Positions 1 through 19,734 are shown, numbered from the stretch's first letter. The stretch is 64,000 nt of DNA from an uncultured Bacteroidota bacterium (GCA_963767125.1 CAVYDB010000002.1:71991-135990), one strand, 5' to 3'. Translations and numbers: made by a program. The notes: generated from the letters alone by a model not told the origin.

Positions 1-29
1 AAAGAGTAGCAAGAGACCTTGCTAATGCA

Positions 30-1481: not shown

Positions 1482-1536
1482 TAGGTAGAATTATTGACCT
1501 TATCGGCTTTTTAAAAAAATAAATAAAATAACAAAT

Positions 1537-1779: not shown

Positions 1780-1841
1780 GTGTACCCCAAAATTAGGGCA
1801 GGTTGTTAAGGTGGAAAAATAAACCTTAAATTTACCTGACT

Positions 1842-2959: not shown

Positions 2960-3077
2960 AAGTTATTAACAAATTAACACTTATCAACAAAGAAAAAAGA
3001 AGCAAAAAAGAAAATGACAACAACAATAACAAAACAACTTAACTTTGACTTACTCCTGTCCTAACATTGGGGTACAC

Positions 3078-3833: not shown

Positions 3834-3919
3834 AATAATTTAGAAAACCGTTGCGTATTATGTTTTATAGGAGGGACTTTGCCCTATGAAATAATAATAA
3901 AAATCATCTGAAATAAATT

Positions 3920-5203
3920 ATGGCACATTTAAAATTTATCGTTAGAACGCAGAAAAATGTACTAAACCAAGACGGAAGTTCAATTATCTTTTTAAGATAT
4001 ACGCACCGCAGTAAAGTGACTTTATTCTCCGCAGAAAGAACAATAAACCCAGATTTCTGGGACAAAAAAAGAGGTTGTGTTAAACAATCTTATAAAGGTT
4101 TCAGCGCATTTAATATGTATTTAGATAAGTTTCGACAGGGGATAGAAGATTATGTTCACAAAGCATTATCTGATGAGATTGAACCTACTATTGAATACAT
4201 TAGAAGTAAGGTCAGATTAAAAATTGAAAAGAAAGAGGCAAAAGCTTCTCAACTTGGTTTCTTCTCATTTGTTGAGCAGTATATTGAAGGTGCAAAGGTT
4301 AACAAGAAAAAGTCTACCATAACTGCCTATAAAAACTCCCTAAGACATCTGCGAGAATTTAAAGTTTATAATAGAGAGCCGTTAACTTTTGATTCTTTCG
4401 GTTTGGATTTTTACGACAAGTTTAACTATTACATTATTGAAGTTAAACATTGCGGAAATAACGCCTTTGGAAAGCAAATAAAGACGTTAAAAACCTTCTT
4501 AAATGAAGCGATTGAAAGAGGATATGAGGTAAACCCTTCTTTCCGAAGTAAAAAATTCAAGATAGTAACGGAAGATGTTGAGAATATTTACCTGACGGAA
4601 GCGGAATTAGGAAAATTACTTGCTCTTGACCTTTCTCACGATTTACGTTTAGAAAAAATACGGGATTTATTTATTGTAGGCTGTTACACAGGATTAAGGT
4701 TTTCGGATTTTTCAGAAATTAAACCTGAAAATATAAGGAATGAATGTATCTACATCAGAACTATTAAAACACAGCAAAATGTTGTAATTCCCTTTCACCC
4801 TTATGTCCGTCAAATAATGGCAAAATACGAAGGTAAATACCCTAATCATTTACCTCCTTCCATAAGTAACCAAAAGATGAATAACTACTTGAAAGAAATT
4901 GGAAAACTGGCAAAACTAGATGAAAATATACTTCTTTCAAGAACTAAAGGAAGTAGGTTAGTTGAGAATATCTACAAAAAATACGAATTAATAACTACCC
5001 ACACAGCAAGAAGGTCATTTGCTACTAACCTTTTTAAACAAGGCTTTCCAAGTTTGAATATTATGAAAATCACAGGACATAAAACGGAAAAATCGTTTAT
5101 GCGCTATGTTAAGGTCAAGGAAGAAGAGGCTGCACTAATGTTAAAGAAGCATTGGGATTCATATTACCAAAATACACCTTCACTCCTATCGAAAATTGCC
5201 TAG
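3920..5203 (+). CDS. Tyrosine site-specific recombinase/integrase (Bacteroidota type with an N-terminal arm-binding domain)
   Basis: 427 aa with catalytic-region motifs 'GLRFSD' (Arg), 'HTARRSFATN' (HxxR) and 'GHKTEKSFMRYV' (His/Tyr). Confidence 0.9.
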   Translation: MAHLKFIVRTQKNVLNQDGSSIIFLRYTHRSKVTLFSAERTINPDFWDKKRGCVKQSYKGFSAFNMYLDKFRQGIEDYVHKALSDEIEPTIEYIRSKVRLKIEKKEAKASQLGFFSFVEQYIEGAKVNKKKSTITAYKNSLRHLREFKVYNREPLTFDSFGLDFYDKFNYYIIEVKHCGNNAFGKQIKTLKTFLNEAIERGYEVNPSFRSKKFKIVTEDVENIYLTEAELGKLLALDLSHDLRLEKIRDLFIVGCYTGLRFSDFSEIKPENIRNECIYIRTIKTQQNVVIPFHPYVRQIMAKYEGKYPNHLPPSISNQKMNNYLKEIGKLAKLDENILLSRTKGSRLVENIYKKYELITTHTARRSFATNLFKQGFPSLNIMKITGHKTEKSFMRYVKVKEEEAALMLKKHWDSYYQNTPSLLSKIA

Positions 5204-5304
5204 TTGAATTAACTTATCCGGAACGCATTTGACAGATTTTGATAAACAAGTTGAAGATTCATTCGTAAAATCAAAGAAAACGCTTAAAATCCATATTGGA
5301 ATAT

Positions 5305-5334
5305 GAAATTAGGGAAATCCAAGCCAGTATTAAG
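5305..5334. repeat. att-like imperfect direct repeat, copy A
   Basis: GAAATTAGGGAAATCCAAGCCAGTATTAAG resembles 15256-15294. Shared blocks are GAAATT, GGG, AAA, CCAAG and CAGTATTAAG. It lies about 100 bp past the integrase stop. Confidence 0.3.
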
Positions 5335-5421
5335 ATATATTTGCCATAGAATTCAAAAACTAAAAAACAAAGACATAGAAAAAACATAAAATAATTACAT
5401 ATCAGCGTTATCTGATTCTTT

Positions 5422-5532
5422 GTAGTTAAAAACTGCGAAAATTTCAACAGAACAAAGGATAGGATGAACGCTCACGCAAAGCGTGGGCTTTATCTTGTCT
5501 GTTCTGTAGGTGCTTCGCAGTACCTTAACTAC
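5422..5532 (+). other. Long imperfect hairpin (~111 nt); candidate structured RNA, leader or ssDNA origin element
   Basis: Nested stems: 5422-5429/5525-5532, 5433-5439/5514-5520, 5448-5454/5500-5506, then a near-continuous helix 5458-5477/5481-5499 closed by an AAA loop. Confidence 0.5.
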
Positions 5533-5605
5533 GGCAGGTAAATGTCCCACGCTGATTTTTTATATAAACACCTATTTGGGACATTGGGGATAAAGACCAA
5601 CACCC

Positions 5606-6097
5606 ATGAAAAAATTGCTGTTATTATTTGTTGCTTCATTTTTATTTTCAACTTCGCAGTCACAAACTCCCAAATCTCTGTTAGGACAGTTGAAAATAGT
5701 TCCTCCCAATTCTAATTTGGATTCTATCCCTGAATCTAAAAAAGTTAATGACAGAGAATGTCTCGCGAATAATCTCGCGGAAGATACATCAATTTATACA
5801 AAGGTTAAACAAAATCCTAAGTTTCCCGGTGACCTTTACTTATGGCTTTCAAATCATATTGAATACCCAGAACAAGCAAAGGATTCCAATTTACAGGGTA
5901 TTGTTTATGCATCTTTTGTTGTTGAAATGAATGGTTCAGTTTCACGGAGTAAAATTGTGAAGGGTATAAATAAATTGATAGATGAAGAGGTTTTAGAGGT
6001 CATTTCTGAAATGCCAAAGTGGGAGCCAGGGAGAAATAATAAAGGGCAAATTGTGAGAGTTCAATTCACTCTACCAATTCACTTTTCGAATAGATAG
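5606..6097 (+). CDS. Secreted TonB C-terminal-domain protein
   Basis: Signal peptide 'MKKLLLLFVASFLFSTSQS'. The C-terminus 'PKFPGD...YPEQAKDSNLQGIVYASFVVEMNGSV...PKWEPG...V' matches the TonB_C layout. Confidence 0.65.
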   Translation: MKKLLLLFVASFLFSTSQSQTPKSLLGQLKIVPPNSNLDSIPESKKVNDRECLANNLAEDTSIYTKVKQNPKFPGDLYLWLSNHIEYPEQAKDSNLQGIVYASFVVEMNGSVSRSKIVKGINKLIDEEVLEVISEMPKWEPGRNNKGQIVRVQFTLPIHFSNR

Positions 6098-6255
6098 ATA
6101 TTTAAATGACCAGATTCAATACACCCGAGCAGGATAACTGAACAAAGAGGAACAATCACCTTCATCTTTCCCTGCAATAAATTTTCTTGATTTTATTGGT
6201 TGGACATTCCAAATTAAGTAGGACTGTTGCCCCAATTATTAAAACAAATAAAATC

Positions 6256-6669
6256 ATGGAAACAAAAATCAACGCCAGTTTCATTAAGAGAGCATCCTAT
6301 GCTACCCTTAGTCAACTGTGCAAACAAATGAATGTTGAATTTGAAAATCAATCTAAAGAAAAATTGCAAGAACTTCTTATTACTCAACTTAAACCTGAAG
6401 AGAAGCAAGTGATAAGCCCCGAACTAAAAGAAGCTGCTAAGGGAAATTCGACTGTAAAGAAGGTAGTAAAAAAGATAATTCATACTAAACCCACACCAAT
6501 TAAAAAAGCTGATAATGCCAAAAAGGCATCTGGGGTTAAGGAAGAAACTAAGTCGAGTAAAATCCTTGCTCTTTATTTAAAAGGCAAAAAAGTAAGTGAG
6601 ATAAGTACAGCATTAAATGCCCACCCTTCCTTCTGTTATACTGTAATAACTAAGCATAAAAAGAAATAA
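6256..6669 (+). CDS. Lys-rich putative DNA-binding protein (SAP/Rho-N-like N-terminus, HTH-like C-terminus)
   Basis: I take the start at ATG 6256 rather than the TTG at 6187. 'ATLSQLCKQMNVEFENQSKEKLQELLITQL' resembles a helix-extended-helix motif. The centre is Lys-rich, and 'KKVSEISTALNAHPSFCYTVI' is HTH-like. A terminator follows. Confidence 0.4.
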   Translation: METKINASFIKRASYATLSQLCKQMNVEFENQSKEKLQELLITQLKPEEKQVISPELKEAAKGNSTVKKVVKKIIHTKPTPIKKADNAKKASGVKEETKSSKILALYLKGKKVSEISTALNAHPSFCYTVITKHKKK

Positions 6670-6683
6670 CATTAAGAAGACAG

Positions 6684-6710
6684 AATGCCACTCTTTTGGG
6701 TGGCATTTTT
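6684..6710 (+). terminator. Rho-independent terminator
   Basis: Stem AATGCCAC (6684-6691) pairs with GTGGCATT (6700-6707), followed by a T-run. Confidence 0.65.
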
Positions 6711-6734
6711 GCATCTTAACAATAACTTAGACAT

Positions 6735-7158
6735 ATGCTTATACCTGTAAACAAAAAACGGAGGGAAGAACCTATTCAAAGGGCTCTAGATATATATTTT
6801 ATTTTAAGAGAAATATTGTACTCTAAACATAAATTCGACCAAGAAAAAGAACACTTCTATAGTATAATTCTCTCCTCGAATAAAAGGATAAAATGTATCG
6901 ATGAAGTTTCAATCGGTAGTAGCCGTTCAACAATTGTTCATCGGAGAGAAGTATTCCGATTTGCAATTCTAAAAGGAGCCCAGGCGATTATAGTAGCCCA
7001 TAATCATCCTTCAGGAAGTCTTGTCCCAAGTGAAGAAGATAAAAAAGACCATTAAGATTCTAGTTGAGGCTGGTAAAATTCTGAATATACCTATTCTTGA
7101 TAGTCTAATTATCTCTCCTAGGAATTATTACAGCTTCTTGGGAGATAATTCTCTATAA
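6735..7158 (+). pseudogene. radC: RadC-like JAMM protein (DUF2466), frameshifted
   Basis: 'VAHNHPSGSLVPSEEDK' is the JAMM HxHxxxxxxxxxxD-type motif. The frame breaks in the A6 run at 7041-7046. The next frame continues with the expected RadC C-terminus 'TIKILVEAGKILNIPILDSLIISPRNYYSF' to the stop at 7156-7158. Confidence 0.75.
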
Positions 7159-7248
7159 ACTTTAGACCTCATTTAGCTAATTTATTACGTATTATTGCAT
7201 ATTGTTTCTCCACGTATTTATATTATTTATCCCTTTAGTTTCTAATGC

Positions 7249-7911
7249 ATGACTGTCTACTTGAGTTCATTTTATCCATTATGTTCGACAAGGTCAGGGA
7301 AAAAAGCATCAAAGAACTTTAAATTTCCTCCATATATTGATGGTTCATGTAGACGGGAGCCTGATTTTGAGAAACAACATCCTTCTATTACAGGACTTTG
7401 TCGTCCACCTTTTGCAGCAAAACTCTGCAAGGGAGATATAGTAGTTTACACAACAAACAAATTAGGTATTGGTGCACGTAAAGTAGTGGCGGTGTTAGAA
7501 GTTATACATGTTATTCAAAAATCCAATGAAAACCCTAAATTTTCAACACATAAAAAAGCAGCTAAATGGTACTTTGAGAAAAAATATAAATTACCAAATA
7601 ATTTAATGGTAAAAGATAATATCCCTCATCCATTAGTTGAAACAAGCCGGAAAGGTAGGTGGGTAGATTGGGTCGGAGGAAAAAGTCTAAAAGAATGGGA
7701 TAAACATTATTTGGAACGCTCAATAAATACTAATGTTGCGATTTGTAAAGTGCTCTGCAAAGAATTAAATAATCCTATTGAGTTGACAGAAAATGAAATG
7801 TTGAGAATATTTGGGAGAAGACCTGGCACACGAAACCCATCAAAGGTTCAACCTAAAGAATGGGATGATTTTAGGAAGTGGTTATTCAAAAATAGATACA
7901 ATATTAAATAA
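7249..7911 (+). CDS. Hypothetical protein, family not recognised
   Basis: 220-aa ORF with a Cys/Arg-rich N-terminus 'PPYIDGSCRREPDFE...GLCRPPFAAKLCKGDIVVYTT' and a basic, Trp-rich C-terminal half. No family motif that I can name with confidence. Confidence 0.5.
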   Translation: MTVYLSSFYPLCSTRSGKKASKNFKFPPYIDGSCRREPDFEKQHPSITGLCRPPFAAKLCKGDIVVYTTNKLGIGARKVVAVLEVIHVIQKSNENPKFSTHKKAAKWYFEKKYKLPNNLMVKDNIPHPLVETSRKGRWVDWVGGKSLKEWDKHYLERSINTNVAICKVLCKELNNPIELTENEMLRIFGRRPGTRNPSKVQPKEWDDFRKWLFKNRYNIK

Positions 7912-8090
7912 TAACTATAGTTTTTGTTGGGAAGAGGATTGGCAAGTTTGGAGTAATGGATGATAGTCCGAAATGATAGGCATTTTTGACCGTATGTTTG
8001 ACCGCACGCAGTATCTCCCTAATAAATCTTGCTATTTATGCCATATTTCGGAAGAGATACCTGTTCCAATTAGGACAATAGTAAAATTTC

Positions 8091-8098
8091 TACCTTTG
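8091..8098 (+). promoter_or_regulatory. Bacteroidota -7 promoter box (TAnnTTTG)
   Basis: TACCTTTG lies 37 nt upstream of ATG 8135. Confidence 0.4.
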
Positions 8099-8134
8099 CG
8101 GAGGCACTGCGTATCTTCCAATTTAGAGATTATT

Positions 8135-8602
8135 ATGAGGACATTCTTGGAGCAACCTGAAGCGACATTTTACCATGTAACGACAATTGAAAAGTGGGTC
8201 ATAATTCAAGCCAATGGTTTAATACCGAATAATGGACGACTTTTTGTTTCAAGAGTTGGCGAACTGCCAATTCTTCTCGCAATAGCTTTTGAACAATTAC
8301 CTGAAATTTATTCAACCGAAGAAATTATCTTTTTGAAACTACCTCAATCTAAGAATAATTTTATGATTGATGAACTCAAACCTGACAATCAGGCGAGAGT
8401 TGAATGGACTCAACCATTTCAGAATATTATTCTTCGTCAACACATTGCTATTCAAAATATAGAATTAATGATGAGATTGCAATTAGGGCAAGAACCACAG
8501 AGAACATTCACTATTAACTACTTGACCCGCATCGCAAATGCAGGAAGGGAAAATTATCAAAATCACAGTATCACTGCAAGAGCATTACAATTAATTTATT
8601 AA
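8135..8602 (+). CDS. Hypothetical protein with an ADP-ribosyltransferase-fold-like opening motif (speculative)
   Basis: I take the start at ATG 8135; the ORF track extends to 7973, but that stretch contains the promoter box. 'FYHVTTIEKWVIIQANGLIPNNGRLFVSRV' is followed by the strand 'EEIIFLKLP'. Confidence 0.5.
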   Translation: MRTFLEQPEATFYHVTTIEKWVIIQANGLIPNNGRLFVSRVGELPILLAIAFEQLPEIYSTEEIIFLKLPQSKNNFMIDELKPDNQARVEWTQPFQNIILRQHIAIQNIELMMRLQLGQEPQRTFTINYLTRIANAGRENYQNHSITARALQLIY

Positions 8603-8620
8603 AACTGAACCACCTAAAGT

Positions 8621-8851
8621 ATGGCAACAAAAATGATTACTGAAACTGTTCAAGTAACAATAAGTTCCACGGAAGAAGAAATTAGACAGGTAGTATTTGG
8701 GAGTTCGCTTACTCCAATAGGTAAATTGTATGAAAGATACAACAAATGTATAGAATCATATAAGGGTAATGGTTACACGATTGTTAGTGAAGATTCAGAA
8801 AAGCTTTCGTTTATTGCAGAGAAGAAATATCTGGAGGAGGAAAAGAATTAG
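8621..8851 (+). CDS. Small hypothetical protein (76 aa), likely co-transcribed with 8135-8602
   Basis: Starts 18 nt after the upstream stop on the same strand. The C-terminus is acidic. No recognisable family. Confidence 0.45.
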   Translation: MATKMITETVQVTISSTEEEIRQVVFGSSLTPIGKLYERYNKCIESYKGNGYTIVSEDSEKLSFIAEKKYLEEEKN

Positions 8852-8921
8852 GTTAACCATAGAGGATAGGTACAATTTTGTGGATAATAGAATTGCCTAG
8901 TTGGAAATGCTATTATTATTC

Positions 8922-11636
8922 TTAAGAGATTTTATCTCGTAATTCAGCGATGAATCCTTTTCTTTGTAAATATTCTAAGTAGAATGCTTTTAAAGGTAAT
9001 TCTTCAGTTTTAGTAATTTTCTCTAACCATTCCATTGGTGCTTTTTTCATTTCATCGGGAATATGATTGGATATTTTAATTGCAACCGACCTAGAGATTC
9101 CCCTTGAAATCATTATTAATACATCAATTTTACGAGTACCTAACTCTAACATTGTTGGTAAATTTAAAGTACGATGATATAGCTTTTTTTGCTCCTCAGT
9201 CATTAGAGAGGCAAGAATATCAGTATAGACCTTAAAATATTTTACTAAAATAAAAGTGACAAGAATTGAATTGTAGTTGATGACATGGTTAATAATATTA
9301 TTGACCATCCTTACTTCACCTTTAAGCTTCATTTCACTCGGGTACTCTTCACGATAGTATTGAATATCTTCTTGTATTAAATCAGCTAAAGATAAACTTT
9401 GCAACCAAACAAATCCGTAATAAGCCATTTGGCGTGCACCAGCACTAGTACTTCTTATTGAAGCCTCCTTCCACATTGCAAAGATTCTATCTAGTTTAAG
9501 GATTAAATTCTCAAATTGATAGTAAAAACTTGCTTGTTGTATAGATAATGCTTCAGCATTTTTTCTAGTCATAAATACTTTCCCGAAATTGTCATTTCCT
9601 AGCTCCTGATCAATGATTACCCATTCTTCAAAGCCGTCAGATTTTATTGTCTCATATAGTTTATTCTGGAGAATGGGGTCTATACTAGGATTTAAGCGTA
9701 CTACATCCTTAGGTATAGTAAATTTTCCTAGTTTTTCTGTAATTATATCCGATATTATATTTACCTTGTTTTTATCTAACCCTCTTCCTTCTAGATAACT
9801 AATAAAATTTGATGGTTCTTCAATATACTTCTGTTTTATATAATTACCTGTGTATTCATCACCCTTATGCTTTAAAAATCGAGGTTCCCTATTTAGTACA
9901 TCAACAATAGCTTGGGTATCTTGTTTCATTACTTCATCGGTAATTAGTTTGACTTCCTTAGTATATTGTTCAGTATTATAATATGAATCTGCCCAATTAT
10001 CTGAGGGACTAACCTCAAGGCAAAAAACTGTCCCAATCATTCTCGCACCTATCCTTCCTGCTCTTCCAATCAAATTACTAAATTCAAAATGACTTAATTC
10101 AGCTCCATCTTTCTTTGGTGAAATGATAAACATTCGAGGAGCTGGAAGATTAACCCCTTGTAATAGCGTACTAGTACAAAAAAGATACTTTATATAACCT
10201 TTTTCAAATAAATATTCAACTTCATTTCTTACAAAATCTGGGAGTTTACCATGATGAAACGCTACATTATACTCAAGGCAATATATTAAGTAATAGTCTT
10301 TATGTATCTCTTCTTTTAACAAGTCGATAAACCTCTTAATAGCAGGGTGTATATCTTTTGGTTTATCACCATATCTCCTTAATTCCCTAACAAATTCAAT
10401 TGCATAACTTACACAATAATTTGCCTTAGGGGAATAAATAAGATTCCCATCTGGCTTCCCAAACCTTCTAACAATCGGAGCTAGATAGAATTTATTTGCA
10501 ACGTAATTATTAACCTTTAAATCCTCGCTTATCTCTATAGAGTGAGTCTTCTTGTCATTTAAAAATAGATTGACTTTTATAGTGTCATTATTAATATATT
10601 TAACAGCAAGCCGTAATTGATATACAGGCGGCAAATAAGTATGTACCTCTTCCGCAGATAAAGACATCAATTTTGTATATAACTCTTTACCATTATTGAT
10701 AAAAGGTCCAGCGAAAAGAATCTTTGCATTTATCCATATTCGTGGCATTTCTGAAAGAATACTAATTAGGAGAACTGCCCTGTTATCGTTTGTTTCGACA
10801 TTTTGAATCTCATCTACAAAAATGAAGTTCGGGTAAAATTTTTTATTCCAACCTTGCTGTAGTAACTTCAAACATCTTTCTGGAGTTACACAGTAAATTT
10901 CCTTTAGATTATTCTTATTATTTTGAGATGTCTCTATAGCTTCCTGCGAATCTTCAACAAATGCAGTCTTTATTAACACATCTTTGTCTAAGATTTTCTT
11001 GAAATCATCACTTACTTGGCTAATTAACGCTCTTGTTGGAACTATATAAATTACTTTGAATTCGGAGTTAGTTGAAAATAGGCTACCAATAAATCGTTGT
11101 ATAAAAAATGATTTTCCAGCAGAAGTCGGGGCTGAAATTGCAATTCTATTATGTATTTGGAGATTATCCCATAATTCTCTTTGGAAATCAGTTACGAAAT
11201 ATGTTGTATTACCAGTTTCTATTTTATTAATATTACGCTTAGTACCCACTTCGAAATCCAATACAATTCCAAAGCTTTTCCGAAACTTTCTTATATTAGT
11301 ATCCGCGTTTTGTTCCTCATAGACTGTTTGAAGATGGTTCGCAGCAGCAAGATTCCCTGTTCTTGATAAAATAGTATATGATAACTGCGTTTTTGATTCA
11401 TCTTTGTTATATTGAAGAAACAGCAATTTTGCAAAAGAAGCTGCGATAAATTGATGCTTTTCCTCTGAGCTATTAGCAAGTATTGATGCTAACCAACCAG
11501 CTTGACGTAATTTCTCATCATCAATTGGTAAATACCCATTTACTTTGTAATCAGAACAAAACTGGTTTACCGCTAATGTTTTAATAGCGTCTAATAATAC
11601 TGGATGATTTCTTACTGAATCAAATGTGTTGGACAT
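8922..11636 (-). CDS. hamB: Hachiman HamB, superfamily-2 DEAD/DEAH-type helicase
   Basis: 904 aa. Helicase motifs: I 'APTSAGKS', Ia 'IVPTRALISQV', II 'FVDEIQNV', V 'STLLQGVNLPA' and VI 'LIGRAGRIG'. The start overlaps the stop of the upstream DUF1837-like gene by 25 nt. Confidence 0.7.
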   Translation of the reverse strand: MSNTFDSVRNHPVLLDAIKTLAVNQFCSDYKVNGYLPIDDEKLRQAGWLASILANSSEEKHQFIAASFAKLLFLQYNKDESKTQLSYTILSRTGNLAAANHLQTVYEEQNADTNIRKFRKSFGIVLDFEVGTKRNINKIETGNTTYFVTDFQRELWDNLQIHNRIAISAPTSAGKSFFIQRFIGSLFSTNSEFKVIYIVPTRALISQVSDDFKKILDKDVLIKTAFVEDSQEAIETSQNNKNNLKEIYCVTPERCLKLLQQGWNKKFYPNFIFVDEIQNVETNDNRAVLLISILSEMPRIWINAKILFAGPFINNGKELYTKLMSLSAEEVHTYLPPVYQLRLAVKYINNDTIKVNLFLNDKKTHSIEISEDLKVNNYVANKFYLAPIVRRFGKPDGNLIYSPKANYCVSYAIEFVRELRRYGDKPKDIHPAIKRFIDLLKEEIHKDYYLIYCLEYNVAFHHGKLPDFVRNEVEYLFEKGYIKYLFCTSTLLQGVNLPAPRMFIISPKKDGAELSHFEFSNLIGRAGRIGARMIGTVFCLEVSPSDNWADSYYNTEQYTKEVKLITDEVMKQDTQAIVDVLNREPRFLKHKGDEYTGNYIKQKYIEEPSNFISYLEGRGLDKNKVNIISDIITEKLGKFTIPKDVVRLNPSIDPILQNKLYETIKSDGFEEWVIIDQELGNDNFGKVFMTRKNAEALSIQQASFYYQFENLILKLDRIFAMWKEASIRSTSAGARQMAYYGFVWLQSLSLADLIQEDIQYYREEYPSEMKLKGEVRMVNNIINHVINYNSILVTFILVKYFKVYTDILASLMTEEQKKLYHRTLNLPTMLELGTRKIDVLIMISRGISRSVAIKISNHIPDEMKKAPMEWLEKITKTEELPLKAFYLEYLQRKGFIAELRDKIS

Positions 11637-12595
11637 TTAACTTCATATTTAGATTGGACAGGCTTAGGTCTCCATTCGACACTATGAAAAGTCTTGTAGA
11701 GTAAATGTTTAAAATCATCAACGCTTTTCATCGGAATAAAGAAAAAATCGAGATAAACCTCTGAAACCTCCCTAAATTCCTTGCACAGTTCTTTAACATT
11801 AGAAGCGTAAGAGTTTAAGTTCTGATTTATTATTTCTTTTATCTTGTTTTCTCCGTCCTGATTATTTAATGCGTTAATTCCATCAATATTTTCGTCATCA
11901 TAAATTATTAAAACTGGATGTACCTTAACCCTAGCTTTATGCTCTTGTGTAGAGGGAATGAAACACTGGTATATGTAGTCAAGTTCTTCCTTACTTAGAT
12001 CAATACGAATATTTTTAGTCGCTACAAATAATTCGTAATTAAGCGCGCTATATTCATATTCTTTGTAGAACTTGTCCAATGAGACAAAGGCATCTTTTAG
12101 AGCATCTTTGAAAGAAGACCAGGTCTTTGCTTCACCAATTAATATTGCTGGTAATCCCTTGTAATCTCCGCAAAATAAACCGTCACCACCTTTTATTTGG
12201 TCGTTAGGATTTGTGGGGAGTTTAAAAATAACCATTGGGACTTTTAAAACCGCTTCGGTAAGTAGGTAAAGAACTAATTCTCCATACTTACCATCGTATG
12301 TAGGATTCTTATTACCGAAGTATTGTAGAGCATAAATAAATGGTTCGAGCTTTGCCTTCTTGATTCTTTCAATCTCCTTGTCATTCAAAACATATTTTTG
12401 AATTGAAGCAGCAATAAATTGGGCAAAACTGTTGGTATCATATTTAGTTCCAGTAAATTGAATACTATAAGTTCGAATAATTAGCTTTCCTTCCTCAATT
12501 ATAGTATGCTCGGTAAGATGTTCAGCCACCCATCCGCCATCTACAGTAATAAATTTTTCCCAATCTATTTTCATTGTTTTCATTAAGGAGAACAT
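11612..12595 (-). CDS. hamA: Hachiman HamA (DUF1837-like, PD-(D/E)xK nuclease motif)
   Basis: 327 aa with 'GGDGLFCGDYKGLPAILIGEAKTW', a D...ExK-type motif. Its size, its position immediately upstream of the helicase and the translational coupling all fit the HamA/HamB operon layout. Confidence 0.6.
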   Translation of the reverse strand: MFSLMKTMKIDWEKFITVDGGWVAEHLTEHTIIEEGKLIIRTYSIQFTGTKYDTNSFAQFIAASIQKYVLNDKEIERIKKAKLEPFIYALQYFGNKNPTYDGKYGELVLYLLTEAVLKVPMVIFKLPTNPNDQIKGGDGLFCGDYKGLPAILIGEAKTWSSFKDALKDAFVSLDKFYKEYEYSALNYELFVATKNIRIDLSKEELDYIYQCFIPSTQEHKARVKVHPVLIIYDDENIDGINALNNQDGENKIKEIINQNLNSYASNVKELCKEFREVSEVYLDFFFIPMKSVDDFKHLLYKTFHSVEWRPKPVQSKYEVKCPTHLIQ

Positions 12596-12659
12596 TAAAT
12601 TTCAAGTATTGCTCTCTAATATTGATTTACTATAAACAGAATAATTAGTGAATTCGCCC

Positions 12660-12667
12660 CAAAAATA
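12660..12667 (-). promoter_or_regulatory. Bacteroidota -7 box for hamAB (TAnnTTTG on the minus strand)
   Basis: The plus strand reads CAAAAATA, which is TATTTTTG on the minus strand. It lies about 65 nt upstream of the hamA start. Confidence 0.35.
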
Positions 12668-12707
12668 GCATTTTTAGTAGGATACTAACAAAATTGACAA
12701 TTGTTTA

Positions 12708-12715
12708 TACATTTG
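12708..12715 (+). promoter_or_regulatory. Bacteroidota -7 box for the DUF262/DUF1524 gene
   Basis: TACATTTG lies 39 nt upstream of ATG 12754. It is part of the 15-mer TGTTTATACATTTGC, which recurs at 15352-15366. Confidence 0.4.
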
Positions 12716-12753
12716 CCTACTTTCTTATAGTAATATATAATAAAAAATGAAGC

Positions 12754-14589
12754 ATGAACAAACAACTGATAAATAAAATTGATGCCAATGATACAAACAT
12801 CAATTTGCTATTGAAAGACCAGAAGTTCTTTATTGATTATTTTCAGCGTGAATACCGTTGGGCAGAGAAACATATTAAGCAGCTTGTTGAAGATTTAACA
12901 ACTACATTTTTAAAATCTTATAAAGCAGGTGATAAGCGTTCGGAAATTGCTAACTATCAAAATTATTATTTGGGTCCAATAGTATTCAGTATTAATCCAG
13001 AGAATAATAAAAAATCTATCATTGATGGTCAGCAACGGATTACATCCATTACTTTGGTACTTATATACCTAAATCATTTACAAGCAAATAATCCTAAGAA
13101 GGTATCTATTAGTGAATTGATATTCTCAGAAAAGTTTGATGAGAAATCTTTCAATATGTCTGATGAACCTAGGGAAGAATGTCTAACGGCATTGTTTGAA
13201 AATGGAGAATATGAATTGCAAGAGAAGGATGAGGAAACTGTTAAGAATATGGTGGAACGGTATGAGGATATTGGAAATTCGTTCCCCGAAGAAATTGATA
13301 CTATTGCTTTACCCTATTTCATAGACTGGTTTATTCAAAATGTTGTTGTTGTAACAATTACAGCCTATTCAGATGAAAATGCTTATACAATTTTTGAAAC
13401 CATGAATGACCGTGGGTTGAATCTCACTTCAACTGAAATGCTCAAGGGTTACGTACTTTCGAAGATTAAAGATAAAGTAAAAAGAAACGAAATAAATGAA
13501 CTTTGGAAATCCGAAATCAAGAAACTTCATCAGTATGGTGAAACAGTTGACCAAACTTTCTTTCAAGCATGGTTCCGAGGTAAATACGCTAAAACTATTC
13601 GTCCCGGTAAAGTTGGTTCCGAAAATAAAGATTTTGAATTAATAGGTTCCCGTTTTCATAGTTGGTTTAGAGATAACCATGAATCCCTATTCAAGCTCAA
13701 AAAGTCAGATGACTTCTATGATTTCTTCAAAAACCAATTCCCGTTTTATGTTAAATGGTATATGAAGTCCATGGATTTTCAAGTAATTTATAATCCTGAT
13801 GCACCGCATCTTTACTATATTCATCAATGGGGAATAGCTGAATCATTACAAGAACCACTTTTATTAGCTCCTATAAATTATGGGGATAATAATAGTGAAA
13901 TAAATAGCAAAATGGATTTTGTTGCAAGGTATATTGAAACATTCACCGTTAGAAGGGGAATAAGTTTTAGAAAATTTGGTCAAACTGCTATTAAATATAC
14001 GATGTTTAATCTAATAAAGCTAATAAGAGATAACGATTTAGAAACACTGGGCAATAATCTTTCAAATGAAATAGTAAGTATTGATGAGAACTGGGATAAA
14101 GTTTATTATTTCAGATTGCATGGGATGAACCGAAAGTTTGTTAAACATTTACTTTGTCGTATTTCAAGCTATCTAGATAATTTGGTTGGTAAAGGCACTA
14201 ATTATGTAACTTATCATCATCCTAATGGACGACAATTTGAGATTGAACATTTATGGGCAGATAAATTTAAAGAACATAAGGATGAGATTGACCAGGAAAC
14301 TGAATTTCAGGAATGGCGGAATGCTATAGGTGCATTAATACTTCTTCCCCAAGGGACAAATCAATCTTTTAATAGTGATAAATATGAGGATAAGCTAGAG
14401 CATTATTTAAAAGAAAATACCTATGCACAAACTTTGCATCCAGCATTTTACAAGAAAAATCCCAATTTTTTGAATTCAAAAGAAATTCAAAGCTTGGAGT
14501 TCATTTCGCACCCTCATATGAAAACCGCAGATATTGAAGAAAGGCTTTATTTAGTTCAACGTATATGTGAACAAATATGGTCATTCTAA
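12754..14589 (+). CDS. GmrSD-like type IV restriction endonuclease (DUF262 + DUF1524)
   Basis: 611 aa. N-terminal DUF262/ParB-like motifs 'DYFQREYRW' and 'IDGQQRITS'. C-terminal His-Me/HNH-like DUF1524 motifs 'FEIEHLWA' and 'NAIGALILLPQGTNQSFN'. Confidence 0.75.
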   Translation: MNKQLINKIDANDTNINLLLKDQKFFIDYFQREYRWAEKHIKQLVEDLTTTFLKSYKAGDKRSEIANYQNYYLGPIVFSINPENNKKSIIDGQQRITSITLVLIYLNHLQANNPKKVSISELIFSEKFDEKSFNMSDEPREECLTALFENGEYELQEKDEETVKNMVERYEDIGNSFPEEIDTIALPYFIDWFIQNVVVVTITAYSDENAYTIFETMNDRGLNLTSTEMLKGYVLSKIKDKVKRNEINELWKSEIKKLHQYGETVDQTFFQAWFRGKYAKTIRPGKVGSENKDFELIGSRFHSWFRDNHESLFKLKKSDDFYDFFKNQFPFYVKWYMKSMDFQVIYNPDAPHLYYIHQWGIAESLQEPLLLAPINYGDNNSEINSKMDFVARYIETFTVRRGISFRKFGQTAIKYTMFNLIKLIRDNDLETLGNNLSNEIVSIDENWDKVYYFRLHGMNRKFVKHLLCRISSYLDNLVGKGTNYVTYHHPNGRQFEIEHLWADKFKEHKDEIDQETEFQEWRNAIGALILLPQGTNQSFNSDKYEDKLEHYLKENTYAQTLHPAFYKKNPNFLNSKEIQSLEFISHPHMKTADIEERLYLVQRICEQIWSF

Positions 14590-14671
14590 TACTTTGCTTC
14601 GTAAAATGTAGATTTTTATGAGAAAAATAAAATAACCCCGAGAAAATTTGGAAAATTCAATATTTATGTGT

Positions 14672-14679
14672 TAATTTTG
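14672..14679 (+). promoter_or_regulatory. Bacteroidota -7 box (TAATTTTG)
   Basis: Its 3' end (14679) lies 22 nt upstream of ATG 14701. Confidence 0.35.
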
Positions 14680-14700
14680 TAGTTACTAAACCCATTTACT

Positions 14701-15195
14701 ATGGAAATATATACTTATGACTTTGATGTGTATAATAGGCATGTCACGCTTTATTTCGACAACGGACAACAATTGAAGGTGTTCCTAAATCAGGACTCGG
14801 GTAAGATTTATATGCGCCCTAAAATAGGCAGCACGTTTGGTGTATATCATAAGGGAATATACTTAGGGTACTCTGAAAAGGGACAACAAATAATGATTCA
14901 TAATCACAGCACCCCAGGAAGGGCTGTAATAACGACTTGGGGAGACTTTTTACAGAATCAATCATCATTTCTTGATGATAAGGTATGTTCAAATGCTCCA
15001 ATTGAAAGACTTAAAATTGCTTTAGCAAACGTTTTACAACGGGAGCCATACGATTTACTTAATAACTCCTGCCAAACCTTTGTAAACGAAACCTGTACAA
15101 ATGAACGTAAAAACGATGATACAGGAAAAGTTCTTCTTGGTATCGCAGCCACAGGTTTGATTATAGCAGGGCTAAATGCTTTATTTGGAGAATGA
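14701..15195 (+). CDS. LRAT/PLAAT-like NlpC/P60-superfamily protein with a C-terminal membrane anchor
   Basis: His box 'YHKGIYLGY...IMIHNHS' and Cys box 'NSCQTFVNE' (compare NCEHF in LRAT/H-RAS-like suppressors). A hydrophobic helix 'VLLGIAATGLIIAGLNALF' sits at the extreme C-terminus. Confidence 0.6.
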   Translation: MEIYTYDFDVYNRHVTLYFDNGQQLKVFLNQDSGKIYMRPKIGSTFGVYHKGIYLGYSEKGQQIMIHNHSTPGRAVITTWGDFLQNQSSFLDDKVCSNAPIERLKIALANVLQREPYDLLNNSCQTFVNETCTNERKNDDTGKVLLGIAATGLIIAGLNALFGE

Positions 15196-15255
15196 CTGAA
15201 TCAAACCCCTAATCTTTGTGATTTATTGGTATTTAACCACTAAACAATACTCCAA

Positions 15256-15294
15256 GGAAATTTGGGGAAACCAAGTGATTCAAACAGTATTAAG
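15256..15294. repeat. att-like imperfect direct repeat, copy B
   Basis: GGAAATTTGGGGAAACCAAGTGATTCAAACAGTATTAAG shares ordered blocks with 5305-5334. It lies about 60 bp past the last cargo gene. Confidence 0.3.
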
Positions 15295-15357
15295 TGCAAC
15301 TTGATACTCATTAGAATCTTTTTATTGTATTCAGTCCCGAATTCAGTCAAATGTTTA

Positions 15358-15365
15358 TACATTTG
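15358..15365 (+). promoter_or_regulatory. Orphan promoter-like -7 box (TACATTTG) within the repeated 15-mer
   Basis: The same 15-mer occurs at 12702-12716. No annotated plus-strand ORF lies downstream, and a terminator follows at 15488. Confidence 0.3.
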
Positions 15366-15487
15366 CATAGGTACACCTAGTATTTTATTCTAAAGAGAAA
15401 TCCTTTTGAGCTGCTCTATAAGGGTGCATATGAGTTTACACGTATGTTTAAAACCTTCCAGGTCGGACAACATTTAATAACTTCAAG

Positions 15488-15517
15488 GCACTTAATATTA
15501 AGTGCTCTTTTTGTTTT
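15488..15517 (+). terminator. Rho-independent terminator (plus-strand orientation)
   Basis: Perfect palindrome GCACTTAATATTAAGTGC (15488-15505) followed by TCTTTTTGTTTT. Confidence 0.6.
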
Positions 15518-15520
15518 CTA

Positions 15521-16639
15521 TCAAAGGTTTGTCCATTTTATTCCATCCCATTGGGAAACGTAATTGGAGTCCAATTTGTTTGATACGAATACACTCACTA
15601 TCCCATATAGGTTATTATTGTAATTAGCCAACGAGAAAACCGAATTATTTATTCCTGAACCAACAGTAGACCATAATGTTCCATTCCATTGAACAATTCC
15701 TGAGCCGGTATTTCCATTATCACAAAACACCCCCGCAAAAAGATTATTGTTATATGAACCCAAAGCAAACGACTCATTCACTCCAGAACCTAAAGCTGAC
15801 CAATTTGTCCCATTCCATTCTGCTACTGAATTAGCAGAAATTCCACCTGCTACGCCAAAGTATCCTCCAGCGTAAAGATTACCATTGCATACTGTTAATG
15901 CTACAACTGGAAAATCATCAACAGAGTCATTAATTCCACTCCCGACTGTTGACCATATAGTATCATTCCATTTCGCAATGTTATTAACAGCAATATAGCC
16001 ATTAGCCCACGAAAATCCACCACAAGCATATAAAAATCCCTCATAAATAGCTAATGCATTTACTGTACCAGTTGCTCCAATTATGGTTAAACCATTGTCG
16101 ACCGACGACCATGTGGAACCATTCCATTTGGCAATTGAATTCACAGCATTCCCACTAACGTTGTAGAAATTACCACCAACATAGAGGTTTCCATTATATA
16201 CTGCCATGGTATTAAATACAACAGTACTATATAGGTAGGGAGACTGGAAACCACCTGGAATCGAATCCCATGTTGTGCCATCCCATTTCGCAAATTGGCT
16301 ATTCGAGTTGCTATTTCCAATAGTAAACTCTCCGGCAGCTATAAGATTACCATTATATACCGCTAATGCAGTGACATTTCCATTCAATCCTAAACCCAAT
16401 GCAGACCATGATGTTCCATTCCATTCTACAATGCTATTGCACGGTGTCCCATGAATATTTGAGAATTTGCCACCAACAACAAGGTTACCATTATAATCGA
16501 TTAATGCGTTCATAAGTGGACCGGATTTTACAGGTGTAGCAATTTTTGGCGTTACTGTTACAGTTTTTTTATCACACGCAATTATGTAAGCACACACTAT
16601 TACAAACATGAGAATTCGAATCAATCTGAAGTATTTCAT
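15521..16639 (-). CDS. Secreted or lipoprotein repeat protein (beta-propeller-like 'WNGT.WS.LG.G.N' repeats)
   Basis: I take the start at ATG 16639 ('MKYFRLIRILMFVIVCAYIIAC', lipoprotein-like signal). About 7 repeats of 'A.WNGT.WS..G.G.N..V.AL..YNGNLY.GG.F' follow. Confidence 0.6.
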   Translation of the reverse strand: MKYFRLIRILMFVIVCAYIIACDKKTVTVTPKIATPVKSGPLMNALIDYNGNLVVGGKFSNIHGTPCNSIVEWNGTSWSALGLGLNGNVTALAVYNGNLIAAGEFTIGNSNSNSQFAKWDGTTWDSIPGGFQSPYLYSTVVFNTMAVYNGNLYVGGNFYNVSGNAVNSIAKWNGSTWSSVDNGLTIIGATGTVNALAIYEGFLYACGGFSWANGYIAVNNIAKWNDTIWSTVGSGINDSVDDFPVVALTVCNGNLYAGGYFGVAGGISANSVAEWNGTNWSALGSGVNESFALGSYNNNLFAGVFCDNGNTGSGIVQWNGTLWSTVGSGINNSVFSLANYNNNLYGIVSVFVSNKLDSNYVSQWDGIKWTNL

Positions 16640-16879
16640 AAACACGCTCTCGCCATATCTTAGCAATTATAGTCATTTTTTTGTACTTCATAGCCACTAT
16701 CTTGCAATAACCATTTAAGCTGCACATAATGCTTTTCCCCCTTTTCATCACTACCGCCCTTCCCTTTCCCCCCATTCAACTATCAATTACCCCATCTTAA
16801 CGAATAAGAAGAAATAATGCCATTCCCCGGGCTAACTTCGTATAGATAAAAGATAGAAATGTAGTTAAATACACACATT

Positions 16880-18547
16880 ATGCCACGGACTAAATTAAGT
16901 AAGAAAAATGTGGAAGCTCCGGCAGAAATTAAGAAGGTAGAAGTAAGATTGCTCCGGGTTACTGATTATTTAGGGCTTTTTGATTCTATGAAAGAAGCCT
17001 ATAAGAATTGGCATGGTACATTATGGCCCGAGAAAACGATAGAGCGGCTGATAGAGGTATTTCCCGAAGGGCAAATTGTAGTGCTTGTAAATGAGAGAGT
17101 AGTTGGAGTAGCCCTTTCCATCATTGTGAATTATGAAGATTTTGGAGACGAGCATACCTATAAAGAAATTACAGGCAATTATACCTTCGATACTCATAAT
17201 CCGGATGGAGATGTGTTATATGGAATAGAGGTTTTTGTGCATCCCGATTACCGTGGACTAAGGCTCGCAAGGCGCTTGTACGATGCCCGCAAAGACCTCT
17301 GCGTAAAATTGAATTTGAAAGCTATTGTATTTGGCGGAAGGATACCCAATTTTAAAGAACACTCTGTCAAATTAAACCCCCGCCAGTATATTGAAAAAGT
17401 AAAAACCAAGGAAATATATGACCCGGTGCTGTCTTTTCAACTGTCTAATGAATTTCATGTGGTTAAACTATTGAATGATTATATGCCTCATGATGAGGAA
17501 TCGAAAGCTTATGCAACACTAATGGAATGGAACAATGTGCTGTATGAAAAACAAACCAAACACCCTCAGCAAAAAAAGAGTTCTGTGCGGGTAGGTTTGG
17601 TACAGTGGCAAATGCGCTCCTTTAAAACGTTTGAAATGCTCTGCGAACAAATCGAATTCTTTATAGATTCGGTCGCCGGATATAAATCTGATTTTATTTT
17701 GTTTCCGGAATTATTTAATGCCCCGCTGATGGCTGAATTTAACCACCAGAGCCAGGCAGAAGCCATACGTAGCCTTACCCAATATACAGAGCCGTTGCGC
17801 GATATATTCAGCAAGTACGCCGTTACCTTCAATATCAATATTATTACCGGGAGTATGCCTGTTCTTTTTGACGGGAAACTTTATAATGTAGGCTACCTGT
17901 GCAGAAGAGACGGTTCTATTGAAAGTTACATAAAAATACATGTGACACCCAACGAAGTAAACGCCTGGGGAATAGTAGGCGGAAGTAAATTGAAAGTATT
18001 TGATACCGATGCCGGAAAAATTGGAATACTGGTGTGCTACGATGTGGAGTTTCCGGAACTTTCGAGGCTGCTTGCCTTGCAGGGTATGGAAATATTATTT
18101 GTGCCTTTCCTTACCGATACTCCTAACGCTTTTACACGGGTAAGGTCATGTGCAATGGCGAGAGCGATAGAAAACGAATGTTTTGTGGCTATTGCCGGAT
18201 GTGTGGGTAATTTGCCCAAAGTACATAACATGGATATACAATATGCCCAATCTTCTGTTTTCACCCCTGCTGATTTTGCTTTTCCAACTAATGGAATAAG
18301 AGCGGAAGCTACCCCAAATTCAGAGGCTGTAGTGATAGCCGACCTGGATCTTGATATGTTAAAAAAAATGCGCTCGCATGGCAGCGTGCGTAACCTGCTT
18401 GACCGGCGAACAGACCTATATGAATTAAAGCAGCTTATACCTGCCGGAAAATGGGATATTGTAAACCAGCCTACAAAACCAGGTGAAGCCAAAATATCCA
18501 TAGGACGGAATGGCGTAATTAATATTCACCATCCCGATAGCCCGTAA
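16880..18547 (+). CDS. Bifunctional GNAT acetyltransferase / carbon-nitrogen hydrolase (nitrilase superfamily) protein
   Basis: N-terminal GNAT motif 'VHPDYRGLRLARRLY'. The C-terminal half carries the E-K-C triad context: 'FPELFNAP', 'IKIHVTPNE' and 'ILVCYDVEFPE'. Confidence 0.8.
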   Translation: MPRTKLSKKNVEAPAEIKKVEVRLLRVTDYLGLFDSMKEAYKNWHGTLWPEKTIERLIEVFPEGQIVVLVNERVVGVALSIIVNYEDFGDEHTYKEITGNYTFDTHNPDGDVLYGIEVFVHPDYRGLRLARRLYDARKDLCVKLNLKAIVFGGRIPNFKEHSVKLNPRQYIEKVKTKEIYDPVLSFQLSNEFHVVKLLNDYMPHDEESKAYATLMEWNNVLYEKQTKHPQQKKSSVRVGLVQWQMRSFKTFEMLCEQIEFFIDSVAGYKSDFILFPELFNAPLMAEFNHQSQAEAIRSLTQYTEPLRDIFSKYAVTFNINIITGSMPVLFDGKLYNVGYLCRRDGSIESYIKIHVTPNEVNAWGIVGGSKLKVFDTDAGKIGILVCYDVEFPELSRLLALQGMEILFVPFLTDTPNAFTRVRSCAMARAIENECFVAIAGCVGNLPKVHNMDIQYAQSSVFTPADFAFPTNGIRAEATPNSEAVVIADLDLDMLKKMRSHGSVRNLLDRRTDLYELKQLIPAGKWDIVNQPTKPGEAKISIGRNGVINIHHPDSP

Positions 18548-18900
18548 GGACTATAGTTCAGGCTGCCTATAATCAATAGTTTATAACTTTTTAGTCGCAT
18601 TTCAATCTGTAAATCTATAGCTTATCCCAAAAAACAGGTATTAAATTTGAATTGTAAACTTTACATTATATAATAGGAGTGTGACTTCTTACAGTCTAAA
18701 ATGGCTTGTAACTATAGGTAGTTATCAACATGGGGGGCATTTTGCATTCTGTATAATTTATAAAAGTGTAAAACTAAACGTTGTTTTTTCGAGGCAATTT
18801 AATCTATGGGGGATAAGTATAAAGCCGTCTTTTATCCAAGAATGTCGATACTTTCTTCCTGAAATATTTTTATTTTTGACCTGTCATTTAATAAAGGCTA

Positions 18901-19719: not shown

Positions 19720-19734
19720 TGGAAAAAAGGAATA

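Follow-up and report, generated by a model that had tools for sequence, protein, structure and literature searches.

A defence-gene block in an uncultured Bacteroidota genome, read as the cargo end of an element integrated at a tRNA-Gln gene

Here we describe an AT-rich genomic island at the tRNA-Gln(UUG) gene of an uncultured Bacteroidota bacterium (genome G000), whose draft assembly comprises 3.55 Mb in 49 contigs and is 79% complete. The window referred to throughout is the whole stretch of DNA that was analysed, 64,000 nucleotides of contig C2 (C2:71991-135990); positions are counted from its first letter, with negative numbers for the DNA directly to its left on the same contig. A preliminary description of the window had singled out positions 5300-15520 as an AT-rich block of cargo and defence genes, starting right after a tyrosine integrase and ending just before ordinary envelope genes. 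We find that in all likelihood (probability about 0.85) one integrative element of 16,240 bp occupies the 3′ end of the tRNA-Gln(UUG) gene, and that this block is its cargo end, making up the right-hand two thirds. The island is of a known kind, a defence island on a tRNA-integrated element. For a poorly studied genus of uncultured Bacteroidota it provides a textbook example of defence genes carried by an integrative element that targets a tRNA.

Extent and composition of the island

The features that delimit the island, together with the genes at its left-hand end, are listed here; HTH stands for helix-turn-helix, ORF for open reading frame, IS for insertion sequence and att for attachment site.

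-842 to -769 (C2:71148-71221): tRNA-Gln(UUG) gene (ARAGORN), complete at attL
-782 to -769: attL, the last 14 nt of tRNA-Gln
-394 to -77: Xis-like HTH gene (PHROG HTH and excisionase families, E 2e-10 and 3e-5)
30 to 1481, plus strand: DUF3987 gene, VirE/P4-type helicase-like (Pfam E 2.9e-57; PHROG DNA helicase E 7e-59)
1537 to 1775, plus strand: 5′ part of a primase-like gene, zinc ribbon (ORF 1537-1809; Pfam Zn_ribbon_16 E 6.6e-29)
1776 to 3081, plus strand: IS3-family IS with terminal inverted repeats (orfA 1842-2132, orfB 2108-2959; Pfam HTH_Tnp_1 and rve)
3086 to 3833, plus strand: 3′ part of the primase-like gene, DUF6371 (ORF 3045-3833; Pfam E 8.2e-61)
3920 to 5203, plus strand: tyrosine integrase gene (Pfam Phage_integrase, Phage_int_SAM_5, Arm-DNA-bind_5)
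15458 to 15471, plus strand: attR (CCAGGTCGGACAAC), a direct repeat of the terminal 14 nt of tRNA-Gln
15486 to 15517, plus strand: terminator hairpin and T-run just past attR, comparable to the tRNA-Gln terminator of two congeners, G002 and G013

At 32.9% GC against 39.9% for the genome, positions 5300-15520 are as AT-rich as the preliminary description had judged by eye. In 1-kb windows GC lies at 0.31-0.35 from position 1 to about 15,000, save for 0.39-0.41 at 1.5-3.0 kb, and the low-GC run continues leftward past the start of the window for about another 1 kb, its sole break being the IS3 copy, which has 39.9% GC. The run takes in the integrase, primase and DUF3987 genes and extends up to tRNA-Gln, 0.77 kb left of the window. 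The left boundary placed at about 5.3 kb, just after the integrase, therefore has to be given up: there is no GC shift at that point, and the integrase lies inside the island. Nor does the block stand as a separate unit, as the integrase, primase, DUF3987 and Xis-like HTH genes share its composition and are enclosed by the same pair of 14-bp repeats. The right boundary, placed at about 15.4-15.5 kb, was accurate to within 50 nt; GC climbs from 0.33-0.34 to 0.38-0.40 over 15.0-16.5 kb and is 0.38-0.43 beyond 15.5 kb (1-kb windows), and attR coincides with this step at about 15.47 kb. From end to end (-768 to 15471) the GC content of the island is 33.4% (32.8% when the IS is left out), and none of 1451 windows of 16.2 kb taken genome-wide is as low (mean 39.5%, standard deviation 1.9%), which makes it the most GC-poor stretch of this length in the genome.

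The attachment sites were sought by comparing 600 bp around tRNA-Gln with window positions 5000-20000. The terminal 14-mer of tRNA-Gln, CCAGGTCGGACAAC, has two copies in the whole 3.55-Mb assembly, one being the 3′ end of the tRNA gene itself and the other 15458-15471, and no further copy was found inside the island when up to three mismatches were allowed. The hairpin at 15486-15517 is read as the original tRNA-Gln terminator, displaced 16 kb by the insertion. Based on the 14-mer repeat and the displaced terminator, we delimit the island as C2:71222-87461, that is, window positions -768 to 15471.

The tRNA-Gln site in related genomes

We compared the site with 17 congeners, all of them other species, with flanking DNA identities of about 65-78%. 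To the right of the island the window carries genes for a secreted repeat protein, a GNAT-nitrilase fusion, a SPOR protein and a MORN protein, and in G002 the counterparts of the repeat-protein, SPOR and MORN genes lie within 2.5 kb 3′ of tRNA-Gln, which marks that genome as having an empty site. A bare hairpin and T-run terminator stands directly 3′ of tRNA-Gln in G013, as it does in G002. A third congener, G006, has another island at this position, consisting of a different integrase of 394 aa (25% identity), a 643-aa gene and an IstB-like gene, followed by SPOR and MORN genes. Since G006 holds a different island there, we take tRNA-Gln to be a recurrent integration site in the genus. The G006 island occupies 12.8-19.1 kb of locus L018 (G006 C107), and its 643-aa protein is ATPase-like by eye.

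The presence/absence check on relatives that the preliminary description had called for thus comes out, at species level only, as either an empty site or another island. The cargo DNA has no match in the 17 congeners save for the integrase, a gene like the one whose ORF begins at 6187, and a leader RNA that is described below. These findings bear on the view that the region is ancestral and non-mobile, its AT-richness stemming from gene content alone. Nothing speaks for that view beyond the lack of a closely related strain for comparison, and we regard it as very improbable given the empty sites in G002 and G013, the unrelated island in G006, the unmatched cargo, the tRNA-end direct repeat that flanks the region and a GC content that is the most extreme in the genome. 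The horizontal acquisition of AT-rich DNA, with two known defence systems, beside a tyrosine integrase and in front of host-like genes, is upheld as it had first been proposed. The genes beyond the right end are host-like as claimed, with their identity as envelope genes borne out only partly.

Backbone and cargo

The features between the integrase and attR are the following.

5385 to 5600, plus strand: structured leader RNA, directly 5′ of the lipoprotein/TonB_C gene (covariation)
5606 to 6097, plus strand: gene for a small exported TonB_C-domain protein (Pfam TonB_C E 1.8e-15; signal-like N-terminus MKKLLLLFVASFLFSTSQS)
6256 to 6669, plus strand: gene for a Lys-rich protein (ORF listed from TTG 6187; first ATG 6256)
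6735 to 7158, plus strand: RadC-like JAB gene (Pfam RadC E 6.6e-22, profile positions 12-85 of 121 over 6735-7055)
7249 to 7911, plus strand: gene for a 220-aa predicted PUA-like (ASCH/EVE/YTH) protein (AlphaFold2 pLDDT 90.9; Foldseek)
8135 to 8602, plus strand: gene for a 155-aa predicted ADP-ribosyltransferase (ART)-fold protein, Tpt1/DarT-like (AlphaFold2 pLDDT 91.5; Foldseek)
8621 to 8851, plus strand: gene for a 76-aa acidic protein, 18 nt 3′ of the ART-fold gene
8922 to 11636, minus strand: hamB, Hachiman superfamily 2 (SF2) helicase (PADLOC HamB1 E 4.4e-241; Pfam DEAD, Helicase_C)
11612 to 12595, minus strand: hamA, Hachiman DUF1837 nuclease (PADLOC HamA1 E 1e-101; Pfam HamA E 1.8e-27)
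12754 to 14589, plus strand: gene for a GmrSD-like type IV restriction enzyme with DUF262 and DUF1524 domains (Pfam; PADLOC HEC-06 E 4.9e-37)
14701 to 15195, plus strand: gene for a 164-aa tail-anchored permuted papain-like (LRAT/PLAAT- or PPPDE-like) protein (family profile)

The products of the genes at 6187, 7249, 8135, 8621 and 14701 have no match in PADLOC, PHROGs or NCBIfam, and the Lys-rich protein has weak C-terminal HTH-like matches, with Pfam hits that are all below threshold. A related element on contig C56 of G006 helps to divide this region. The integrase there shows 81% identity across its last 183 residues, at which point the contig ends within the gene, and is followed by the leader RNA (75% identity), an unrelated lipoprotein gene, a 321-aa gene and a 6187-like gene (53%); the element stops about 130 nt past the last of these at tRNA-Asp, with housekeeping genes beyond. 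None of the window's cargo genes is present in it, and no defence cargo was recognised there in a search with Pfam only. Because the C56 element keeps the order of integrase, leader RNA, lipoprotein gene and 6187-like gene, we take 5385-6669 to be a shared backbone, to which the Lys-rich gene at 6256-6669 would probably belong. The variable cargo is 6735-15195, between this backbone and attR.

The preliminary description had proposed all unassigned neighbours of the two defence systems, at 5606-8851 and 14701-15195, as candidates for new defence or counter-defence functions. For 7249-7911 and 8135-8602 the proposal gains from an association of their relatives with defence islands or restriction-modification (R-M) loci. 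It finds no support for 5606-6669, which resembles element backbone matched in the C56 element, or for 14701-15195, where the one context examined shows no defence link.

The C56 element also provides an argument for a different reading, in which two units lie in tandem, an integrase element reaching to about 5.3 or 6.7 kb and, beside it, an older and independently acquired defence island. The 8.8 kb from RadC to attR have no counterpart in the C56 element, which ends so shortly after its 6187-like gene, and cargo genes in the window carry their own promoter-like boxes. On the other hand, GC is uniform over the supposed joint, no copy of the tRNA 14-mer with up to three mismatches lies between the two ends, and imperfect att-like repeats at 5305-5323 and 15257-15275, a candidate pair that we rejected, align with a score of 23, which is at chance level (shuffled mean 19, maximum 28). 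A conserved backbone with variable cargo at one end is moreover the usual pattern of a single element, and we consider two tandem units unlikely.

For a single element at tRNA-Gln, which we favour, the course of events is as follows. The element was inserted at the 3′ end of tRNA-Gln by a tyrosine recombinase through site-specific recombination. This rebuilt the tRNA at attL, while the original 14-nt 3′ end and terminator were displaced to attR. Three parts make up the element: a maintenance module (Xis-like HTH, DUF3987, split primase and integrase genes), a short backbone (leader RNA, exported TonB_C protein and Lys-rich protein) and variable cargo, the latter made up of Hachiman and a GmrSD-type enzyme with RadC, PUA-like, ART-fold with its 76-aa partner, and LRAT/PPPDE-like proteins as putative accessories.

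Several points weigh against this interpretation. About 5 kb separate the integrase from attL and about 10 kb from attR, whereas many islands have it beside an att site. The 14-bp repeat is short, and the comparison that revealed it gave one other chance 14-mer match. The site was compared between species, at about 75-78% DNA identity, and not between strains. Neither a relaxase nor an oriT was recognised, relaxase domains having been sought in all island ORFs at Pfam, PHROG and NCBIfam thresholds. Finally, we infer the defence activity of the island's genes from homology only.

Maintenance module and mobility

Counted from the tRNA, the left-hand genes run in the order Xis-like HTH, DUF3987, zinc ribbon, IS3, DUF6371 and integrase. 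The genome contains four copies of the IS3-family element (1306 bp), all identical in sequence, and every copy is flanked by a separate 4-bp target duplication: ATTA for the copy in the window, and CAAT, CCAA and CACC for the others, which lie at C5:~22.6-23.9 kb, C40:~21.2-22.5 kb and C20:~171.3-172.6 kb of G000. It is thus an element that has been recently active. Excising the IS and one ATTA in silico joins the zinc ribbon and DUF6371 parts into a single open, primase-like frame of 328 aa. With four identical copies bearing target duplications and a primase frame that can be restored, the insertion must be recent; it has probably disabled the replication gene of the island. Because the primase gene is broken by this recent insertion, the island is probably decaying as a mobile unit.

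NBU1, whose genes include those for an integrase and a primase, integrates at the 3′ end of a tRNA-Leu gene via a common core of 14 bp. The island shares with NBU1-type elements a tyrosine integrase, a primase gene, insertion at a tRNA 3′ end, a 14-bp identity segment, small size and AT-rich cargo. It differs in having no recognised Mob relaxase or oriT, in having a DUF3987 helicase-like gene instead, in its tRNA-Gln target, in the position of the integrase in the middle of the element and in the inactivation of the primase by IS3. Since no relaxase was found, we do not class it as an NBU-type mobilizable element despite the resemblance. Defence hotspots on integrative elements and phage satellites, such as P4-like satellites and phage-inducible chromosomal islands (PICIs), were reportedly described by Rousset et al. 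in 2022. An integrase with a primase/helicase module, and a variable slot of unrelated anti-phage systems beside an att site, are common to these satellites and to our island; unlike them, it has no capsid-hijacking, packaging or cos/pac functions that we could see, and it sits in a Bacteroidota host. The functions seen do not support the status of a phage satellite.

RadC and the quality of the assembly

The preliminary description had listed a radC pseudogene, a typical gene of mobile elements, in the block. The RadC domain is confirmed, with the metal-site segment HNHPSG present, and the assembled sequence carries a frameshift: the frame stops after a run of six A at 7041-7046, and what is left of the domain is encoded in the +1 frame, up to 7158. 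We lean towards an assembly artefact rather than a true pseudogene as the source of this frameshift. To the left of the window, the essential gene infB (L005:5581-8259, equal to G000 C2:67581-70259) is scattered by three frameshifts over four ORFs in three frames, from which we conclude that the assembly has indel errors; yggS also appears split. Such errors may be behind the estimate of 79% completeness. On a practical level, “pseudogenes” that rest on a single frameshift, such as radC, should be read with caution in an assembly with indels.

The indel errors seen in infB, along with a draft of 49 contigs and 79% completeness, are what could be brought forward for the island being an artefact of assembly or binning, with foreign DNA misjoined into a metagenome-assembled contig. 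We find this barely conceivable. The block lies within a contig of 229 kb and has precise att repeats, the tRNA is complete at attL with the displaced 14 nt and terminator at attR, and the IS3 copy is identical to three others in the genome that each have their own target duplication.

Hachiman and the GmrSD-like enzyme

The two defence systems named in the preliminary description were both confirmed by profile searches. HamB covers positions 3-870 of the 871 in the HamB1 profile and keeps the GKS, DEIQ and GRAGR motifs, while HamA covers positions 3-311 of the 313 in HamA1 and has a GD...GEAK motif of the PD-(D/E)xK type at residue 137. The genes are co-oriented, and hamA overlaps the start of hamB by 25 nt. 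Judged by these sequence features, the island carries a complete type I Hachiman system. In such systems HamB restrains the HamA nuclease until DNA damage or aberrant DNA is sensed (PMC12278908, PMC11914072). The pairing of a DUF1837 nuclease with an SF2 helicase, the full-length profile matches, the overlap of the genes and the catalytic motifs are all those of type I Hachiman, from which nothing notable sets it apart; the sequence is new, coming from an uncultured Bacteroidota genome, and no close relative was sought.

The enzyme encoded at 12754-14589 matches GmrSD_N at E 1e-33 (117.6 bits, cut-off 33.2) and GmrSD_C at E 1.7e-7 (31.7 bits, cut-off 23), with DGQQR at residue 91 and a His-Me box, EIEH...N...N, at residue 496. 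GmrSD combines a DUF262 NTPase with a DUF1524 His-Me nuclease and cuts modified phage DNA; since modified DNA is its target, it needs no methylase. The absence of a cognate methyltransferase, which had been taken to fit a type IV enzyme, holds for the island as a whole, domain searches having detected no methyltransferase domain in any of its ORFs. The protein resembles the GmrSD/BrxU/SspE family in uniting a DGQQR-bearing DUF262 and a DUF1524 His-Me finger in a single polypeptide, and in lacking a methylase. It differs in that its best PADLOC model is the candidate class HEC-06 and that it is linked to no BREX or Ssp genes.

Accessory cargo genes

Three orphan families among the cargo, the PUA-like, ART-fold and tail-anchored LRAT/PPPDE-like proteins, gain fold assignments and genomic contexts from this analysis. 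Genes without assignment are thereby raised to fold-level hypotheses, two of them with contexts of a defence type, and become candidates that can be tested in laboratory strains.

The AlphaFold2 model of the 7249-7911 product matches ASCH structures in Foldseek (E 2e-3, probability 1.0, TM(target) 0.56-0.59) and, further, EVE, YTH, THYN1 bound to 5mC DNA and the McrB N-terminal domain, all of which are PUA-like readers of modified bases. Its family comprises 92 relatives of about 210 aa with an invariant GSxRREPD box, and none of the 92 has a Pfam domain assigned to the region. The window protein itself has no hit to Pfam EVE, ASCH or Nmad2; weak EVE matches are given by 5 of 29 relatives (best E 0.0046), and one relative matches Nmad2 at E 0.15. 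In Mucilaginibacter CP188251 and in several metagenome scaffolds a relative lies between hsdS and hsdM, its start overlapping the hsdS stop, and in Flavobacterium ponti another is directly 5′ of hsdM. In Algoriphagus the relative precedes hsdM by about 3.6 kb, and hsdS and an AAA_15 gene come just after, while on one JGI contig a relative lies near AbiEii and HicA genes. Some sources label the relatives “nucleotide modification associated domain” proteins, and a domain so named is listed by DefensePredictor as a predicted, unvalidated defence domain (PMC13092281). The family occurs in 1 of 400 sampled Bacteroidota genomes, which is too rare for statistics, and a tblastn search of phage and plasmid records gave no match. 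Going by the modelled fold and these neighbourhoods, the protein may be a modified-nucleic-acid binding accessory of restriction loci.

For the next gene we place the start at 8135 rather than 7973, because its homologues are of 152-160 aa and up to 80% identical. Against the PDB, the model of its product matches Tpt1/KptA (E 1.4e-4, probability 1.0) and DarT1 (E 3e-3, probability 0.99), followed by MbcT and the ART domains of toxins, with modest TM-scores of 0.4-0.5; in BFVD the matches are phage DarT (E 1.4e-6) and phage Tpt1. At the level of sequence, membership in DarT (DUF4433) or Tpt1 (PTS_2-RNA) finds no hit in Pfam, NCBIfam, PADLOC or PHROG, the family profile matches no PDB sequence, and tblastn of the protein against phage records only was negative. 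Among the residues invariant in the family are H14 (FYHVT, first strand), R40 (VSR, second strand) and E110 (late strand). With DarT, Tpt1 and KptA the protein thus has in common a predicted fold with a His on the first strand, S-R on the second and the Glu E110 late in the fold. It departs from them in having no family match at sequence level, in its shorter length of 155 aa, in having no adjoining macrodomain antitoxin and in its variable partners.

A scan of genome contigs for the ART-fold family turned up four loci only; identity within the family reaches 80% between distant Bacteroidota. In the window its sole partner is the 76-aa acidic protein, which is related to a 77-aa protein of GCA_977068815 (39% identity over 36 aa, BLASTP E 6e-8). 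There the gene order is a triple of a 155-aa protein, a protein described as Ymh/HEPN-like (Pfam Ymh E 1.3e-41) and the 77-aa protein, found twice beside an integrase. The downstream partner is a 182-aa gene in Psychroserpens and Tenacibaculum, and a 376-aa gene in Mucilaginibacter. In a Bacteroidales metagenome-assembled genome (CAYSIN010000079; L066 1575-4788) the ART-fold domain has a C-terminal fusion, giving a protein of 321 aa, with Macro (E 1e-44), CBS and weak PARP-like genes 1-2 kb upstream; these neighbours hint that the family belongs to ADP-ribosylation biology. Another copy sits between Wadjet and Gabija-like genes. Altogether, in 6 of the 8 distinct contexts examined there are defence, toxin-antitoxin or mobile-element genes nearby, such as those for an integrase or a resolvase, the Wadjet and Gabija-like genes and the Macro/PARP-like cluster.

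A toxin-antitoxin or sensor-effector role is plausible for the pair at 8135 and 8621, and given the predicted folds it is likewise plausible that the PUA-like protein and the ART-fold protein with its 76-aa partner are components of defence or toxin-antitoxin systems. More tentatively, and with considerable doubt, the ART-fold protein could be the conserved core of a modular family of defence or toxin-antitoxin systems not yet described, and the 7249 protein a likewise undescribed modified-base-sensing accessory of type I R-M loci. If this were true, an NAD+-using ART-fold enzyme would pair with interchangeable downstream partners.

The product of the last cargo gene had been called LRAT-like. 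An exhaustive HMMER search for its family recovered 125 cluster representatives, with lengths of about 160 aa, and in 47 relatives H50, H67, H69 and C124 (in NSCQTF) are invariant, giving the permuted His/His/Cys order. The best PDB matches of the family profile are PLAAT2, PLAAT3 and HRASLS, at E 0.016-0.05, and its NC box aligns with the NCEHF box of PLAAT2/3. The protein itself falls below the Pfam cut-offs, with E 0.41 for LRAT (11.4 bits, cut-off 24.3) and E 0.02 for PPPDE; of the 47 relatives, 9 match PPPDE and 3 match LRAT. Residues 144-162 form a hydrophobic C-terminal segment (mean Kyte-Doolittle 2.17). In its permuted His...His...Cys arrangement and NCxxF-like box the protein agrees with both LRAT/PLAAT (HRASLS) and PPPDE proteins, and in its C-terminal membrane anchor with the PLAATs; it differs in lying below both Pfam thresholds and in being bacterial. 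The His/His/Cys boxes of the LRAT-like label hold up, membership in Pfam LRAT does not, and with sequence support this weak the label is a fair description of the superfamily rather than a demonstrated membership. Members occur in 8 of 400 sampled Bacteroidota genomes, too few for statistics, and the single context examined was that of a split copy beside gldC-like and HD-domain genes.

Leader RNA and promoter-like boxes

The leader RNA at 5385-5600 folds as a long rod with a conserved apical hairpin and a closing helix (CAGCG/CGCUG), which is followed by a U-run. About 200 nt long and situated between the integrase and the lipoprotein gene, it is found in 8 of the 17 congeners at 73-79% identity, with up to three copies per genome. 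G000 has further copies at C8:38595-38794, C49:354320-354443 and C20:73877-74039, and the congeners account for 12 loci. In all 15 other copies inspected an ORF lies on the same strand just 3′ of the leader, and about nine of these ORFs have a signal-peptide-like N-terminus. An alignment of 16 copies supports 36 consensus pairs, with 96.1% of cells paired against 34-39% when the partners are slid, and 72 cells with double changes against 10-18; none of 500 shuffles reaches any of the five measures. Alternative pairings are possible between GCGUGGG of the apical hairpin and a downstream CCCACGC, and between AUGUCCC and GGGACAU, where the partner varies by G-U-compatible changes only. Because of the downstream ORFs, the single dispersed copies without arrays and the covarying helices, we rejected a miniature inverted-repeat transposable element or an integron attC site as the explanation. 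An Rfam search of positions 1-17000 at E <= 1 gave nothing credible, the leader having no match; as a covarying RNA without an Rfam family, it too is directly testable.

One of the further copies in G000, that on C8, lies in a second integrase-associated island of this genome (C8:35151-40761), which has ORFs of 438, 315 and 241 aa and a small lipoprotein gene.

The genes of the block had been described as having individual TAnnTTTG boxes. A strict box is present 29-72 nt 5′ of 4 of 13 genes (8135, hamA, gmrSD and 14701), for which the description is right, and the density of such boxes is not enriched (16, against 20.9 +/- 4.5 in shuffled sequence). The promoter region of gmrSD at 12698-12744 is duplicated at 15348-15394 (47 nt, 74%), with an exact 15-mer that includes the TACATTTG box. 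The duplicate is located 60 nt short of attR and no ORF follows it; it may represent either an outward-facing promoter or a remnant of cargo turnover. Elsewhere in the window, a second low-GC stretch (0.31-0.36) is found at 24500-27500.

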